Assembly (NCBI GenBank): GCA_965238175.1
Contig: CBDEGZ010000003.1
Location: 2,912,001 to 2,976,000 of the forward strand
Reading direction: 5' to 3'
DNA: 64,000 nucleotides
From: Gammaproteobacteria bacterium
GTDB taxonomy: Bacteria > Pseudomonadota > Gammaproteobacteria > CAJXQU01
The translations under genes were made by a program, and so were the position numbers. This document shows, piece by piece, positions 1 through 4,784 of the stretch (positions within the stretch are counted from its first letter, which is position 1; every line of letters starts with the position of its first letter). A model generated the notes under the pieces. It was given only the letters and a program-made list of their open reading frames with translations. It searched no databases and had not been told where the DNA came from.

Positions 1-2
1 GA

Positions 3-155
3 CATAGATTGACGAAAAACATTTTTAAACGTTTTTTGAGAGCAGCTATCAACTACATTTTTAAAGAACGATGCATTTTAGAAAAATATGCACAACAAGA
101 TTTTAAAATTGCCTTTGGTGCTAAATATTTCAATAGCCTGTTTGTTATTAGATGA
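3..155 (+). CDS. possible 3' end of a gene truncated by the window edge
   Basis: 50 open codons in frame 3 ending in TGA (HRLTKNIF...LFVIR*); no recognisable motif. Confidence 0.3.
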   Translation, partial: HRLTKNIFKRFLRAAINYIFKERCILEKYAQQDFKIAFGAKYFNSLFVIR

Positions 156-327
156 TTTTTTAGTCAAGGTTGGAAGAAAAGAATGCTAGCCAATTATATA
201 TATTGAAAACTTTTCTGAAAAAATCTGAATTATTTACTAACCTGATGTGATGGTCTCCTCCCCCTAACGGCATCTAGGTGCCATGATTGAACTGACATAC
301 ACACAATCAAAAGAGGAGAAGACCAAA

Positions 328-1341
328 ATGAAGACTACAACAATCGGGTTAGACATAGCAAAAAACGTATTTCATGCTGTCTGCTGTAATCAACAAGGGC
401 GTATAATCAAAAAGAAAATGTTAAAGCGAGCGCAGGTACTCTCCTTTTTTCAATCTCAACCTCCTTGTTTAGTCGCAATAGAATCTTGTGCAACGTCACA
501 GTATTGGGCCCGAGCGATACAACAACAGGGACATCAGGTGAAATTACTACCACCTCAGCATGTTAACGCATTTCTAATCGGCAATAAGAATGATTATAAC
601 GATGCCTTGGCCATCGCCGTTGCTGCGAAACAACCTCATTTAAAAAGTGTGGGCATTAAATCAGTTGAGCAACAAGACAACCAGGCACAACATAAAGCAA
701 GAGACTTAGCGGTCAGACAAAGAACCGCATTATGTAACCAAATGAGAGCGCTTGTTGCAGAATATGGCATTAGCCTTCGTCCCGGCCTAAATACCCTACG
801 TCAATCTATCCCGTTGCTATTAAGTGATGAGAACGAACGGTTGTCCGTTACTTTCAAAAGGATACTGCGCCAGCTAAAGGAACAATGGCAATCACTTGAT
901 GCCTGTATTGCGACATTTGACCAATTGATCATTCAATCGGCAAAAAACAATGCGATTTGCCAACGCTTACAAACTATTCCAGGGTTTGGGCCGATGGTCT
1001 CGAGCGCGTATTTTAATGAAGTGGGAAACGGCGCTCATTATCACAAAGGGCGCGATGTGTCCGCCTCATTAGGACTTGTTCCACGACAGTACAGTAGTGG
1101 TGGTAAAGAGGTGCTACTGGGGATCAGTAAACGCGGCAATAAATACCTTCGTTGTTTGTTAATTCTAGGCGCGAAGGCCGTGGTATCAAGAGCCAAAACG
1201 AAAGGCGATAAACTGAGTCAATGGATTAATCGTTTAGTTGAGACGCGGGGGCATAATCGAGCGTGTGTGGCGTATGCCAACAAAATGGCAAGAATGGCCT
1301 GGGCTATAACGGTTTCTGGTGATGACTACTCACCGGCCTAA
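328..1341 (+). CDS. IS110-family (DEDD RuvC-like) transposase/recombinase
   Basis: GLDIAK, IESC and KNDYNDA (DEDD residues); C-terminal GLVPRQYSSGG...ISKRGNKYLR; start moved to ATG 328 downstream of GAGGAG. Confidence 0.95.
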   Translation: MKTTTIGLDIAKNVFHAVCCNQQGRIIKKKMLKRAQVLSFFQSQPPCLVAIESCATSQYWARAIQQQGHQVKLLPPQHVNAFLIGNKNDYNDALAIAVAAKQPHLKSVGIKSVEQQDNQAQHKARDLAVRQRTALCNQMRALVAEYGISLRPGLNTLRQSIPLLLSDENERLSVTFKRILRQLKEQWQSLDACIATFDQLIIQSAKNNAICQRLQTIPGFGPMVSSAYFNEVGNGAHYHKGRDVSASLGLVPRQYSSGGKEVLLGISKRGNKYLRCLLILGAKAVVSRAKTKGDKLSQWINRLVETRGHNRACVAYANKMARMAWAITVSGDDYSPA

Positions 1342-1393
1342 ATAGAGAGAACAAATCATTTCAACGAATTGCGAAGGTAAAACTAAAGATGGC

Positions 1394-1548
1394 ATAACAG
1401 GTCAAACCAGCCTATTGAAAACCTGTCGAGCTCAGGGGTAACTAATACCGATAACCTGATAAGGAAAATAGGCGCGTAATACATCCAGGTCAGAAGTTGA
1501 AAACTTCATTGAAGGCCGTATATATGACAGCAATCCTGTCCCTGTTAT
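1394..1548 (+). ncRNA. putative bridge RNA / seekRNA of the IS1111-type element
   Basis: Closing stem ATAACAGG/CCTGTTAT; target loop within stem GCCTATT/AATAGGC containing TAACCTGA (equals the insertion-site flank); donor segment ATATATGA (equals the element right end); exact transcript ends unknown. Confidence 0.8.
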
Positions 1549-1562
1549 CTGAATGTTTTATC

Positions 1563-1590
1563 TTGCAATACGGGAGGAGACCATATATGA
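1563..1590 (+). promoter_or_regulatory. half of the circle-junction sigma-70 promoter
   Basis: TTGCAA (1563-1568) + 17 bp + TAT; joining to the left end through the TGA core gives TATGAT as the -10. Confidence 0.75.
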
Positions 1591-1795
1591 ACCCAGGATA
1601 AGAATATCCCATAAAAACATTAATAAAAACAATTAGTTATATGAAAAAATGGTGATTGTTTTGCCTTGTGGACTTCTTTTAGCGACTATGTAAGGCAGAG
1701 TTGCGTAGCAATAGTGGGCTATTGGAAACAACTCCAACGCACAGAGGCACTAAAAGAAATTTGCTGAAGGGGTATTTCCTATCCGAGTTCAGGTT
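1588..1795. repeat. MITE-like palindromic repeat (~212 bp when rejoined to 239-245), interrupted by the IS
   Basis: Reconstructed left end AACCTGAACCCAGGATAAGAATATCCC versus right end (reverse complement) AACCTGAACTCGGATAGGAAATACCCC; nested internal inverted repeats TTCTTTTAG/CTAAAAGAA, GAGTTG/CAACTC, CAATAG/CTATTG. Confidence 0.75.
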
Positions 1796-1802
1796 TACTA
1801 GC

Positions 1803-1833
1803 AAAAAAGCCGAAGATGAACTTCGGCTTTTTT
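1803..1833. terminator. bidirectional rho-independent terminator
   Basis: AAAAAAGCCGAAG-ATGAA-CTTCGGCTTTTTT, downstream of the PEP-CTERM gene. Confidence 0.85.
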
Positions 1834-1876
1834 GTAAACCTAAATAAAAAAGCTTATGCTAATTATGACCTTCACA

Positions 1877-2530
1877 TCACTTTTTAGCGAATTTTCTACG
1901 ACCTACCATCCCTAAGAGTCCTAAGCCCATTAATGCTAACGTGCCTGGTTCAGATACGCTCGCTGGTTCCGGTAGCGGTTGAAACGGATACGGTTCTACT
2001 ACTAGTCTGTCTACATTGGTTCTAACATTACCCTTATCAATTTGATCTATCCTTTGACCGTTGCTGTGGACATTATGCCAAATACCCAGTTTATCTCCGA
2101 AACCAACGCTATACTTTTTGTCAAAATTAGTATGATCAAGTCTCAATGAAAAACCACCTTCTCCAATATTGATAATATTATCAAAAGACGCGATTTCTGT
2201 TCCGCCATTCCAATAATCTCTAACACTAACTTTGTTATTTACTAAATCTAAGTTGTATGAAAAGTACTGCTTGGCTCTATTTGGCGAACCGCCACTAGTT
2301 AACGTGAATTGGGCTTTGTCCACTTTTCCAGCATTATTATTAAAACTAGAAAATAGACTAAGTACATTGTTGTAGGTATTCCAAGATGTGGAAAAACTTT
2401 CTATTGGACGATTTTTTAATTTGTCGGAATAACTATAATGATAAACATTAAACGCTTGTGCTGAAAATGCGATGGTTGATGCTATGGTTAAAATAATGGT
2501 AGGAACTAATTTTCTAGCTGTGAATTTCAT
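1877..2530 (-). CDS. PEP-CTERM sorting domain-containing secreted protein
   Basis: Signal peptide (MKFTARK...AFSAQA); C-terminal VSEPGTLALMGLGLLGMVGRRKFAKK; start moved to ATG 2530 behind AAGGAG. Confidence 0.88.
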   Translation of the reverse strand: MKFTARKLVPTIILTIASTIAFSAQAFNVYHYSYSDKLKNRPIESFSTSWNTYNNVLSLFSSFNNNAGKVDKAQFTLTSGGSPNRAKQYFSYNLDLVNNKVSVRDYWNGGTEIASFDNIINIGEGGFSLRLDHTNFDKKYSVGFGDKLGIWHNVHSNGQRIDQIDKGNVRTNVDRLVVEPYPFQPLPEPASVSEPGTLALMGLGLLGMVGRRKFAKK

Positions 2531-2898
2531 GCTGTATCTCCTTATAAGTAAAAATTGATAATCCTTTATCAATGAACGTGCTAGTTCAATAACCAATTAC
2601 AATGGCTTTCAGGAGTGTGTACTTGATAAAAGTAAATAGCAAGGTTATTTAGCTTATAATTAGAGCAAGAGTATTTTAAATCCCCTCTCTAATCTCGATC
2701 AGTAACTTTTCATTCCTCAATGCTATTTACATTTTCGTTTCATGCTTGCATTACTTGTTGTATTTTTCCTTAATAAATTGAGCGTTAGTCGAAGAAAGGT
2801 ACGCACGATTGCCTCGCCATATTCTAACCTCAGATCTGCATAAGGATCCGTTCTTCATTCCAAGAGATGTTGATACTGGGTTTCTTAGGTTGAAAGGT

Positions 2899-3061
2899 AT
2901 ATACCCGTGGCACCTGGAAATGCAGGTTTCAGTGGCTCTGTCGTTCTTGCTGGCAAGGCGTGCTTCGCCGGAAAGGGGGCTTGTTAATTGCTTGGCCCTT
3001 TCCAAGAAACACAACGATGCCCAGCGAGAATGATAGAGTCACCCAAAAGGCACGGGTATAT
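2899..3061. repeat. ERIC-like / MITE-like palindromic element
   Basis: 11-bp terminal inverted repeat ATATACCCGTG/CACGGGTATAT; 22-bp internal stem; 8-bp GGAAAGGG/CCCTTTCC stem. Confidence 0.75.
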
Positions 3062-3155: not shown

Positions 3156-4784
3156 TCAAAAGAATTTTGAACGTCTTGATAGCACATCAATAACAGTCAG
3201 GTTTTTTGCATGTGCAATTGTATGCGTTCCTAATAAACTTGACTCCCAGTGAGGTTCGATAAAATCAACCTCTTGTTCTTCATACTTAGTTTCCGTTAAT
3301 GTGATAATTTCATTTAGCCGGAAACCATATCCATAACGTACAGATGAATCTTGAGCAGGCCTGATCAATTTACCTTCATGTTCATATATTCGCCCGGCTG
3401 AACGTGCTCGCCTGACATCTGCAACAACGGGGCTTTGTGGATGCAAAGTCCAATCTTGGCTCAGTGGAGAATCCGCATAATAGATAGACAATTCAGCATC
3501 AACGCTCACGTCTTGATCGTGTCTACAACTTGTAAACATCCACCATTTTTCGTTATGGTATAAGAGCGTTGTATCGACCGCCCGAATATCTTCCATCAAA
3601 TTACTATGAAACTCCCATTGATCAGGAAAACGAGAAGCTTTGTATACTTCGATAGTTCTATTACTTCCAGTTTCCGGAACCATGTAGCACTCTCCGTCCC
3701 AGAAAAATACGTATGGATAAGATAAATGATATGGTTTGATTAAACAGGGTTTTATCTCTCCTATGTTGCCATCTTCTTCAATTCTAACCACTGAAATATC
3801 AGCGTTTTTATGATCATAAACCGCGTCTTCAAAAAACAGGAAATAACTATCGTCCTTATAGATAATAAATGGATCCGCCCACAAACCACCAAGCTCAGGC
3901 TCTAATTTCTGGAATTGATCAAAATCCATTGATAGACCATCAGCAAGTTTGTAACGCAAACTCCATTCTTCTGCGTATAACCAATTGATCGCCCGCATTT
4001 TTAACGACCTAATGAATTTCTTTACAAAGAAAATAAACATTCTTATATTGCCGGGTTTATCAGAACGAAAACCTTCAGACTCTTGAAGATGTTTTTCTGT
4101 CAAATCGCTATGTGTACTCAAAAAATCATCTGTGCCTAAACTATGCAGTTGTTTGAGTTTTCTCAAAATAGTTGTATCGCCAATTCGATAGGATTTTTTC
4201 TGAGTCGAGCGTGCCGAAGAATCCTCATTAGCCGCATATACAACTTGGTGTAACAATTTGCCAGTGGAATTAGTTAACAAACATTCCATCGTTGGTGAAG
4301 TATCATAAGTTTCCCAAAAACCAACAGGAAACGTTTTCTTATTTACTTTCCCATTTTTAAAGTGGAGTGACCAGATACCCGCTTTAATTTTTGGAAAAAG
4401 TTGATCAGGAAAATTCTTTTGAGTCAGGTTTAATAAAACATCTAAGTTCGCATCGCTAGTTGCTGCTAAACATTCTTTAGACGGGTTACTTATATTTAAC
4501 ACAGGTCCTTCAAGTGTTTCTTTAGAAAGGTCATTTTTATCGATCCATAAACGATCTTCCTCAGTATCAGGCCACCGATAACGTTCCAAATCACAATAGA
4601 CAGAATAGAGTTTATGCTTCCGCATATCAGTAGGTTCCATTACATCTGTAATAAGGGTAATTTCAACTGCAGCAAATGAACTCGCATCGATATCTTTGAT
4701 CAAACGCGATATCCACATCGACTCTTTACTCGTTTTATCTAGTATCAACCCAATCTTGAGTTTATGTTTGGATTTAGCCATCAA
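3156..4784 (-). CDS. EPS-associated protein with C-terminal five-bladed beta-propeller (GINT1/GH32-43-like)
   Basis: WADPF, HLSYPYVF, YMVPET, ARSAGRI, RPAQD...YGYG motifs. Confidence 0.7.
   Translation of the reverse strand: MMAKSKHKLKIGLILDKTSKESMWISRLIKDIDASSFAAVEITLITDVMEPTDMRKHKLYSVYCDLERYRWPDTEEDRLWIDKNDLSKETLEGPVLNISNPSKECLAATSDANLDVLLNLTQKNFPDQLFPKIKAGIWSLHFKNGKVNKKTFPVGFWETYDTSPTMECLLTNSTGKLLHQVVYAANEDSSARSTQKKSYRIGDTTILRKLKQLHSLGTDDFLSTHSDLTEKHLQESEGFRSDKPGNIRMFIFFVKKFIRSLKMRAINWLYAEEWSLRYKLADGLSMDFDQFQKLEPELGGLWADPFIIYKDDSYFLFFEDAVYDHKNADISVVRIEEDGNIGEIKPCLIKPYHLSYPYVFFWDGECYMVPETGSNRTIEVYKASRFPDQWEFHSNLMEDIRAVDTTLLYHNEKWWMFTSCRHDQDVSVDAELSIYYADSPLSQDWTLHPQSPVVADVRRARSAGRIYEHEGKLIRPAQDSSVRYGYGFRLNEIITLTETKYEEQEVDFIEPHWESSLLGTHTIAHAKNLTVIDVLSRRSKFF

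Follow-up and report, generated by a model that had tools for sequence, protein, structure and literature searches.

The stretch of DNA analysed here (the window) comprises 64,000 nucleotides of the forward strand of a gammaproteobacterial genome (GenBank assembly GCA_965238175.1, contig CBDEGZ010000003.1, positions 2,912,001 to 2,976,000). Near its start, at 243-1587, lies an insertion sequence that an earlier note made from the sequence alone (the original prediction) had described as an IS1111-type element whose recombinase is guided by an RNA from the 3' end of the element. Our analysis leads us to consider it very likely that this is an active IS1111-group element with a DEDD recombinase guided by a two-loop RNA from about 1370-1567, which would read the target as well as both ends of the element. 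This reading starts from what can be observed directly, namely the anatomy of the element, its copy number, its insertion sites, the covariation within the RNA structure and the covariation between guides and flanks. The features of the element itself are as follows.

243-1587, + strand: insertion sequence, 1345 bp, with the left TG counted in by the IS1111 convention
243-244, + strand: core dinucleotide TG at the left junction, present also at 1588-1589 and in the RNA arms
245-249, + strand: left-end extension ATGTG (right donor half, RD), predicted to pair with RNA 1480-1484, the last place as G-U
250-262, + strand: left subterminal inverted repeat ATGGTCTCCTCCC, an exact 13-bp inverted repeat of 1572-1584
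328-1341, + strand: gene of the transposase (recombinase), 337 aa, placed by Pfam, NCBIfam and the starts of homologues
1572-1584, + strand: right subterminal inverted repeat, the exact partner of 250-262
1585-1587, + strand: right-end extension ATA, 3 nt outside the repeat

The ends of this element are of the kind that characterizes the IS1111 family, in which the subterminal repeats are typically 11-13 bp long and the extensions outside them are unequal, with 7 bp at the left end and 3 bp at the right end (PMC11187229). In the window element the 13-bp repeat is followed outward by 7 nt at the left end (243-249) and by 3 nt at the right end (1585-1587), giving both the repeat length and the asymmetric 7/3 extensions. 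The family is also known for a long non-coding region 3' of the transposase gene, and here 246 nt follow the stop codon compared with 85 nt before the start; insertion is site-specific and in a single orientation, since all 24 full copies in the genome share the left motif and their orientation to it is constant. The recombinase matches Pfam families PF01548 (DEDD_Tnp_IS110, 3.2e-16) and PF02371 (Transposase_20, 6e-20) and the NCBIfam model NF033542, 'IS110 family RNA-guided transposase', with 302.9 bits against a cut-off of 140. Residues D9, E52, D89 and D92 of the N-terminal DEDD (RuvC-like) domain are invariant across 21 homologues, and from their position we infer that they are catalytic. 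The C-terminal motif GL-P----S(T)G, as defined in PMC11187229, is found at residues 249-258, with G249, P252, S256 and G258 invariant in 21 sequences; the motif serine S257 is off the invariant list, yet it is unvaried in the consensus. The claim of an IS1111-type element is thus borne out by the Pfam domains, NF033542, the 13-bp repeats with their 7/3 extensions and the long 3' non-coding region, and every sequence-level feature places the stretch 243-1587 in the IS1111 group of IS110-family insertion sequences. In the part of the window read for this purpose (1-2400), the sole long open frame of the + strand around the gene runs from 283 to 1341; the in-frame upstream ATG at 283 is probably not the start, as homologues begin at the methionine encoded at 328. 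The closest proteins in a large collection are 83% identical and come from metagenome contigs, and the nearest named protein is from Shewanella, where it is annotated as 'IS110 family RNA-guided transposase'. A search of a plasmid collection in protein mode gave 2481 matching records, all below 60% identity with the nearest at about 45%, in which the features are named only 'IS110 family transposase', a label that provides no ISfinder-type name for the element. Among solved structures, a search by sequence matched the IS621 and ISCro4 transposases over the C-terminal part alone (E ~2e-4), and no IS1111-group protein was among these matches.

The original prediction had read a folded RNA with two guide modules by eye out of the non-coding region behind the gene, and all of the strings that it cited were found in their places by direct reading of the sequence. 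These strings and the modules and helices that we assign to the region, all on the + strand, are listed here.

1370-1567: scaffold of the predicted long seekRNA or bridge RNA, with an outer helix P1 formed by 1370-1377 and 1561-1567
1388-1394 with 1543-1549, and 1397-1401 with 1535-1539: two further closing helices, from alignment A2 (see below)
1394-1401 and 1541-1548: ATAACAGG and CCTGTTAT, strands of the closing stem first proposed
1410-1473: target-binding module, with a stem 1410-1417/1466-1473, an inner helix 1422-1424/1462-1464 and a tip 1437-1440/1446-1449
1410-1416 and 1467-1473: GCCTATT and AATAGGC, strands of the target stem
1427-1435: target arm predicted to pair with the top strand, with 1427-1432 for the right half, 1433-1434 for the core and 1435 for the last base of the left half
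1427-1436: CGAGCTCAGG
1437-1440 and 1446-1449: GGTA and TACC, strands of the target tip
1452-1458: target arm identical to the top strand (left half and core) by comparison with the flank, which would pair with the bottom strand
1452-1459: TAACCTGA, the same 8-mer as 238-245
1474-1531: donor-binding module, with closing pairs 1474-1475/1530-1531, a stem 1488-1491/1514-1517 and a tip 1493-1497/1503-1507
1480-1485: donor arm predicted to pair with the left-end top strand and the core G, with one G-U pair
1481-1485: ACATC, the complement of GATGT at 244-248
1493-1497 and 1503-1507: GAAGT and ACTTC, strands of the donor tip
1520-1526: donor arm identical to the right-end top strand (the last 2 nt of the repeat and ATA) and the core, as in 76 of 76 relatives
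1520-1527: ATATATGA, the same 8-mer as 1583-1590

On its own, the window sequence already points to such a fold. The computed fold of 1342-1590 has an energy of -61.3 kcal/mol compared with -49.65 +/- 4.34 for shuffled sequences (z = -2.68; 2 of 200 shuffles were as stable), and it includes the target-loop stem. The 8-mer TAACCTGA occurs 4 times on both strands of the 64-kb window where 2.15 occurrences are expected, and by arithmetic from this expectation the chance of a copy within one given 249-nt stretch is well below 1 in 100. A scan against Rfam matched no curated family within 1342-1590 at E <= 1.

The evidence that we regard as decisive for the RNA reading is comparative, namely the match between guides and flanks, the covariation of the helices and the match between donor arms and element ends, all of which are read from sequences. 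Relatives were sampled from 80 listed loci in genome records (40-55% identity) and from 80 loci on metagenome contigs (51-77%). Sixty elements, the window's included, have the subterminal repeat core, and after removal of one with a truncated left end, three with non-coding regions longer than 300 nt and two duplicates, 54 distinct sequences remained, which were aligned over window positions 1362-1572 (alignment A2). Nine helices specified by the analyst, with 45 pairs and 2427 cells in A2, are 97.0% paired, and 22 of the 45 pairs have changed on both sides in a compensatory manner. None of 500 shuffles reached any of five measures, and when the partners were slid by 1-3 columns only 35-37% of cells were paired. 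In the target module the helices are 99.3%, 100% and 99.1% paired, with compensatory change in 4 of 8 and 4 of 4 pairs, and those of the donor module are 100%, 100% and 95.5% paired, with compensatory change in 7 of 11 pairs, including all five of the tip hairpin. The 8-bp closing stem 1394-1401/1541-1548 of the original prediction is perfect in the window copy, but it is only 70.5% paired over the 54 relatives and has one compensated pair; the closing stem appears to be better read as the helices 1388-1394/1543-1549 and 1397-1401/1535-1539, which are 89.2% and 99.3% paired with three pairs each changed on both sides. A covariance model of 220 positions built from A2 (R1) matches the RNA in 77 of the 80 listed genome loci, on the strand of the gene and 3' of it, with one exception, a second match on the minus strand in locus L112; the matches include records of Acidobacteria, Burkholderiales, Pseudomonas, Aeromonas and Xenorhabdus. 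The original prediction had proposed to fold the region, to build a covariance model and to compare guides with flanks, and these analyses reveal a conserved structure whose guides track the flanks. Within the genome of the window, an nhmmer profile of A2 found 25 matches, all inside the 25 copies of the element, and no orphan copy of the RNA region.

Across A2 the scaffold is nearly constant and four short segments are variable. The target guides were compared with flanks in 53 elements with enough flank, that is, the window element and 52 relatives with 49-77% protein identity. The five bases at 1452-1456 score 4.55 of 5 against the element's own left flank and 1.57 against the flanks of other elements, and the reverse complement of 1426-1432 scores 5.34 of 7 against its own right flank and 2.09 against those of others. 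The summed score of 524 is far from the mean of permuted pairings (200, sd 14.8, maximum 260), and none of 10,000 permutations reached it. A place-by-place table of 56 rows (55 relatives and the window) reveals how much of the target would be read: on the left five bases, which agree in 98, 96, 94, 87 and 80% before a fall to 11% at places 6-7, and on the right about six, which agree in 98, 96, 93, 80, 73 and 64% of 55-56 rows compared with 31-35% at places 7-8. In arm 1427-1435, the position next to the core is complementary to the final base of the left half in 80% of rows, and the position beyond it pairs in 18%; of the GG at 1435-1436, which had been taken as guide, the first G therefore stands and the second does not. 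The TG core is found in the RNA at 1433-1434 (as complement), 1457-1458 and 1525-1526, and the core in arm 1452-1458 equals the dinucleotide of the right junction in 53 of 56 rows. A TGA core, as originally claimed, is not what the guides specify: their core is TG, or YG in relatives, and the adjoining A belongs to the scaffold of the RNA and to the left end, in both of which it does not vary; the two bases after the core in the RNA are AT in 46 of 56 rows. The two arms of the target loop match opposite strands and overlap at the core, as seekRNAs do, and both guide modules had been placed correctly, with the arm complementary to the top strand preceding the arm that shares the sequence of this strand, which is the order reported for IS1111 seekRNAs (PMC11187229).

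The guides of these relatives differ widely, with 44 distinct guide pairs among the 53 elements, and on a FastTree tree of the 56 proteins the two target guides change 35 and 43 times. We take this variation, as it is read from the alignments, to be natural retargeting on a fixed scaffold. It might be argued that the conserved 3' region works as DNA, as recombinase sites and promoter, and that the flank matches are a by-product of repeated insertion into one repeat family. Such an explanation would suit the presence in the region of a -35-like hexamer that overlaps helix P1, and also the public runs listed, among which no run on record as RNA holds the sequence. However, the 22 compensated helix pairs point to a folded single strand, and the 35-43 changes of the guides on the tree go along with unrelated flanks in unrelated organisms. 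In the work on ISEc11, the RNA region supplied in trans from another promoter reportedly rescued a deleted element. RNAs from this region have also been found bound to related transposases (PMC11187229). We consider an action as DNA alone scarcely credible, and the discussion below proceeds with the region as the template of a guide RNA.

The donor module requires a wider set of relatives, because the right end and its arm are invariant in the close family (ATATA in 56 of 56). A further alignment (A3) therefore included 97 matches of the model, in 76 of which the ends could be assigned by the inverted repeat, the rest having no adjoining repeat or too little flank. In all of these 76 wider relatives the left-donor arm (the position of 1520-1524) equals the last two bases of the repeat and the 3-nt extension, over seven types of right end: ATATA in 48, ATACA in 12, ATGTA in 8, ATCTA in 3, ATAGA in 3, ACACG in 1 and ACACA in 1. 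The right-donor arm, taken as the reverse complement of 1480-1484, scores 4.47 of 5 against the element's own five-base left extension and 3.60 against the ends of other elements, and none of 10,000 permutations reached the observed sum of the donor scores. The first four bases of the left end (LE1-4) pair with the guide in 93-100% of 56 rows, and the arm follows the fourth of these bases, with A accompanied by T in 46 rows, T by A in 6 and 4 rows discordant. The two donor arms match opposite strands of the joined ends, and in the window element this match has one mismatch, at the core T. These results support the donor module as the putative reader of the element's own ends across the group. 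The bases after the core in arm 1520-1529 agree with the first two bases of the right flank 48 times where 37.7 are expected, and 57 of 5000 permutations were as high; this is weak support for a 'handshake'-like reading of 1520-1529, which we do not claim.

The original prediction had treated pairing of the RNA with both target and donor as established. This holds for IS621; for IS1111 elements the target pairing is experimental, but the donor loops are only predicted, from covariance models (PMC11208160). For ISEc11, transposition needed no more than a short RNA of 82 nt that contains the target-recognition regions, and the paper did not settle what the long RNA does (PMC11187229). An alternative is that only the target module guides, the donor module (1474-1531) being retained as a piece of a precursor, or for protein binding or folding, while the protein reads the ends through the subterminal repeats. 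The sufficiency of the 82-nt RNA of ISEc11 speaks for it (PMC11187229), together with the mismatch of C1486 to the core T and the close family itself, where the never-varying ATATA of right end and arm offers no test. The wider set does offer one, and there the donor arm follows the right end over all seven end types (76 of 76), the other arm tracks the fourth left-end base (46 and 6 rows, with 4 discordant) and the helices of the donor module show compensatory change in 7 of 11 pairs. A guide function confined to the target module appears unlikely to us, and we favour an RNA that reads target and donor.

The genome of the window (3.35 Mb in 3 contigs) has 25 copies of the element; 24 of these span the whole of 246-1585, and the remaining one is truncated where a contig begins. 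Among the full copies, 22 have the same 1340-bp sequence (100% identity) and two have a single change apiece (equivalent to window positions 966 and 1513), and the frames are open in all copies. Six other species of the genus are in the collection; a search of these at E <= 1e-30 gave no homologue in five, and the sixth has one with 40% identity. The host's UvrB has its closest named homologues, at 96% identity or less, in gammaproteobacterial MAGs, and no named pathogen was among them. The element marks a recent burst in its host genome that was aimed at a small repeat family. The target of the window copy is described by two further features.

238-242, + strand: left target half (LT) TAACC, in the genomic flank, identical to RNA 1452-1456
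1588-1595, + strand: target core TG and right target half (AACCCA) of the window copy, read from the flank

The flanks of the 24 full copies are distinct in all 24 cases on the left, where they all differ past five bases, and of 18 kinds on the right. Over the 24 sites the left half is T in 23 and A in 1, followed by A, A, C and C in every case (TAACC in 23, AAACC in 1), and then TG. To the right of TG, place 1 is A in all 24, place 2 is A in 19 and G in 3, place 3 is C in 16 and T in 5, place 4 is T in 22, place 5 is C in 17 and place 6 is G in 14. The target loop predicts TAACC, TG, AGCTCG, and the sites agree with the six right-half bases at 5 places in 10 cases, at 4 in 7, at 3 in 5, at 2 in 1 and at 1 in 1. 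Insertion of other copies at unrelated sites had been named as the outcome that would speak against RNA guidance; this was not seen, as all 24 full copies have (T/A)AACC and TG, and the target originally proposed, TAACCTGA(G/A)YTCG, agrees with the 24 sites. That the element is intact and would be reprogrammable, as was also proposed, is suggested by the 22 identical copies, the open frames and the apparent natural retargeting among relatives.

Whether such an element is still active deserves separate consideration, as it could be a recent relic whose expansion is over and whose guide has drifted from its target. In 19 of 24 sites the guide does have a single mismatch to the commonest target, and a fully matching site stands unoccupied next to a copy, both of which would be natural for a relic. 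The identity of 22 of the 24 full copies over 1340 bp, with all frames open, does not agree with this view, and neither does the fact that every copy has the same guide, so that the expansion took place with it. A relic is in our opinion highly unlikely, and an active element remains the reading that we pursue.

Several observations weigh against this reading of an active, RNA-guided element and are gathered here. The relatives are kin to one another, and for the core dinucleotide they provide only four independent pairs on supported branches, three of which go the same way and none the opposite way (p = 0.25). On the donor side, C1486 opposite the core T is a mismatch, the rule assigned the ends in 76 of the 97 aligned matches, alignment A3 was itself fitted to the covariance model, and the need for a donor loop in the IS1111 group is not proven, given the short RNA of ISEc11. 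On the target side, the right flank of the window copy agrees with the guide at just 3 of 6 places, and at place 2 of the right half, 19 of 24 sites have A where the guide base C1431 wants G, which is present in only 3; this place pairs in 96% of relatives. An unoccupied site near G000:C3:393940, inverted and beside a copy, agrees with the guide throughout, from the left half through the core to the sixth place of the right half. Finally, among the public runs listed, none recorded as RNA contains the sequence of the element. As to the mismatches C1431-A and C1486-T, all 25 copies carry identical arms, so the burst occurred with these arms and the mismatches were evidently tolerated.

By analogy with ISEc11, ISPa11, ISKpn4 and IS621, from which we infer the making and binding of the RNA, the circle, the promoter and the strand exchange, the element may go through the following cycle. 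It would be excised as a circle in which its ends abut, and the abutted ends would create a promoter consisting of TTGCAA, 17 nt and TATGAT. This promoter would drive the recombinase gene and then the RNA behind it, so that the RNA would be the 3' part of the recombinase transcript. Within the complex of RNA and protein, target arm 1427-1435 would pair with the top strand of the target, covering six bases to the right of the TG core, the core itself and the base directly to its left, and target arm 1452-1458 (TAACC and TG) would pair with the bottom strand; donor arm 1480-1485 would pair with the top strand of the left end, and arm 1520-1526 has the sequence of the right end and TG. The complex would then recombine the joint with genomic TAACC, TG, A(A/G)(C/T)TCG, mostly at the tip of a repeat that resembles a miniature inverted-repeat transposable element (MITE). 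The candidate promoter has one further feature in the window.

1563-1568, + strand: TTGCAA, a -35-like hexamer, which would form a promoter with a -10 element only when the ends are joined

When the ends were joined in silico, the hexamer was followed by a spacer of 17 nt and by TATGAT, to which the right end contributes its last two bases, the left end its first two and the core the two between them. The hexamers are conserved, and 58 of 59 close relatives have a spacer of 17 nt. A promoter scan of the integrated copy gave no site on the + strand and three sites in total, compared with 4.0 expected. The same arrangement of a promoter at the joined ends is described for ISEc11 (PMC11187229).

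The joined ends also bear on the core dinucleotide, for which the wider relatives reveal a discrepancy. The core in the guide arms equals the dinucleotide of the right junction in 69 of 76 relatives for the donor arm and in 67 of 76 for the target arm, while it equals the dinucleotide of the left junction, which is borne by the element, in 30 and 31 of 76. Classes in which the left junction differs from the right junction and guide include TA/TG in 19, TA/TT in 8, CA/CG in 6 and TG/CG in 5 of the 76 (relatives L059-L218). In 21 of 76 an A at the second place would make the joined ends a perfect TATAAT. It is conceivable, if on the whole doubtful, that in the IS1111 group the donor's own core dinucleotide need not equal the core written in the RNA. 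If this were true, IS1111-type strand exchange would tolerate or even exploit a core mismatch, with a geometry unlike that of IS621. In the window element, both junctions and three of the four guide arms carry TG, and the remaining arm is mismatched to the core T; the discrepancy is thus without effect on the reading of this element, which with its 25 copies would serve as a nearly matched reference case.

The closest published counterparts are the IS1111 elements ISEc11, ISPa11, ISKpn4 and ISPst6, for which seekRNAs have been described (Siddiquee et al. 2024, PMC11187229). The features that these share with the window element include a DEDD transposase, 330-350 aa in length, that contains the GL-P----SG motif, subterminal repeats (11-13 bp) flanked by 7/3 extensions and a long 3' non-coding region. 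In their seekRNAs, too, the complement of the top strand precedes that of the bottom strand, with matches that overlap in the target, and their joined ends form a promoter, which in the window element is predicted from sequence (PMC11187229). They also insert into repeated, foldable targets, such as repetitive extragenic palindromic (REP) sequences for ISPa11 and attC for ISKpn4 (PMC11187229). The target of the window element differs, being TAACC, TG, AACTCG at the tip of a MITE-like repeat, and its likeness to the ISEc11 group is one of published features. The IS621 bridge RNA (Durrant et al. 2024, PMC11208160; Hiraizumi et al. 2026, PMC13626964) is alike in having target and donor loops that read both strands, a dinucleotide core and a recombinase with the same domains. 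However, the RNA of IS621 is encoded in the left end, ahead of the gene, the order of the arms is reversed (PMC11187229) and the subterminal repeats are short, and the similarity of its protein to that of the window is detectable only in the C-terminal domain (E ~2e-4). IS4321 and IS5075 (Partridge and Hall 2003, known to us from the title of the paper) are IS1111-family elements that also insert in the terminal inverted repeats of another mobile element; their target is the repeat of the Tn21 family, whereas here it is the tip of a small non-coding repeat. In Pseudomonas putida, ISPpu9 is likewise an IS110-family element in repetitive extragenic sequences, with a small-RNA gene (Ssr9) after the transposase gene (PMC12288879); unlike in that system, the RNA region of the window was found by the profile search only inside the 25 copies.

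The window element is apparently a very active and fresh example of its kind, and it does not reveal a new mechanism, as the RNA-guided mechanism has been in print since 2024; the family or its fold may already be contained in Supplementary Table 5 of PMC11208160 or in the supplementary figures of PMC11187229. Its interest lies elsewhere. IS110-family RNA-guided recombinases are in development as genome-editing tools, and nearly all structural and mechanistic work has been done on IS621. The element is a clean natural specimen of the IS1111 branch, with 25 near-identical copies and a short, readable target. The scaffold that it has in common with dozens of relatives, together with their 44 natural guide pairs, yields a table of the positions that appear to count, five to the left and about six to the right of the core. 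The comparison of relatives also supports, at the level of sequence, a working donor loop in the IS1111 group, a matter that PMC11187229 had left open.

The repeat into which the element has landed accounts for two further features of the window.

1588-1797, no strand assigned: MITE-like repeat, about 205 bp, inverted termini; its left tip is where the element has inserted
1783-1797, - strand: unoccupied target site at the opposite tip of this repeat, reading AAACC, TG, AACTCGG

About nine long copies of this repeat are found in the genome, with 83-100% identity and the target motif on both tips. The insertions of the element are mostly at its tip, and many right flanks run on as this repeat. 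Among the other flanks, the copies at C3 945279, 1054150 and 2865993 have one identical 50-nt right flank, and those at 116801 and 1170732 share another; neither is the 205-bp repeat, and both are probably the ends of other repeated elements with a similar site. Two small derivatives of the left-end sequence only, both flanked by the target motif, lie at C3:1393269-1393344 and C3:1154706-1154810; one is a perfect palindrome of two left ends face to face, and the other, of about 105 bp, consists of a left end and an inverted left-end-like end. A remnant of another IS1111-type element with a broken frame is present at C3:2357906-2358383 (79% DNA identity over the first ~390 bp), and a remnant of an IS1111-type protein, 35% identical and with three stop codons, at C3:2897426-2898116. 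The largest contig begins inside a copy of the element (G000:C3:1-1326), which is probably explained by a break of the assembly at this repeat.

In the neighbourhood of the element, a scan of 1-3000 gave an HrrF-like Rfam match at 1699-1834, which was set aside with 24.8 bits compared with a gathering score of 77 (E = 0.21); a hairpin followed by a T-run lies at about 1801-1834, after the region of this match. The 542-aa product of the gene at 3156-4784 (- strand) matched no NCBIfam family. The gene that adjoins the repeat, at 1877-2596 (- strand), encodes a protein of 239 aa with a C-terminal PEP-CTERM sorting signal (TIGR02595, 20.6 bits, cut-off 16).

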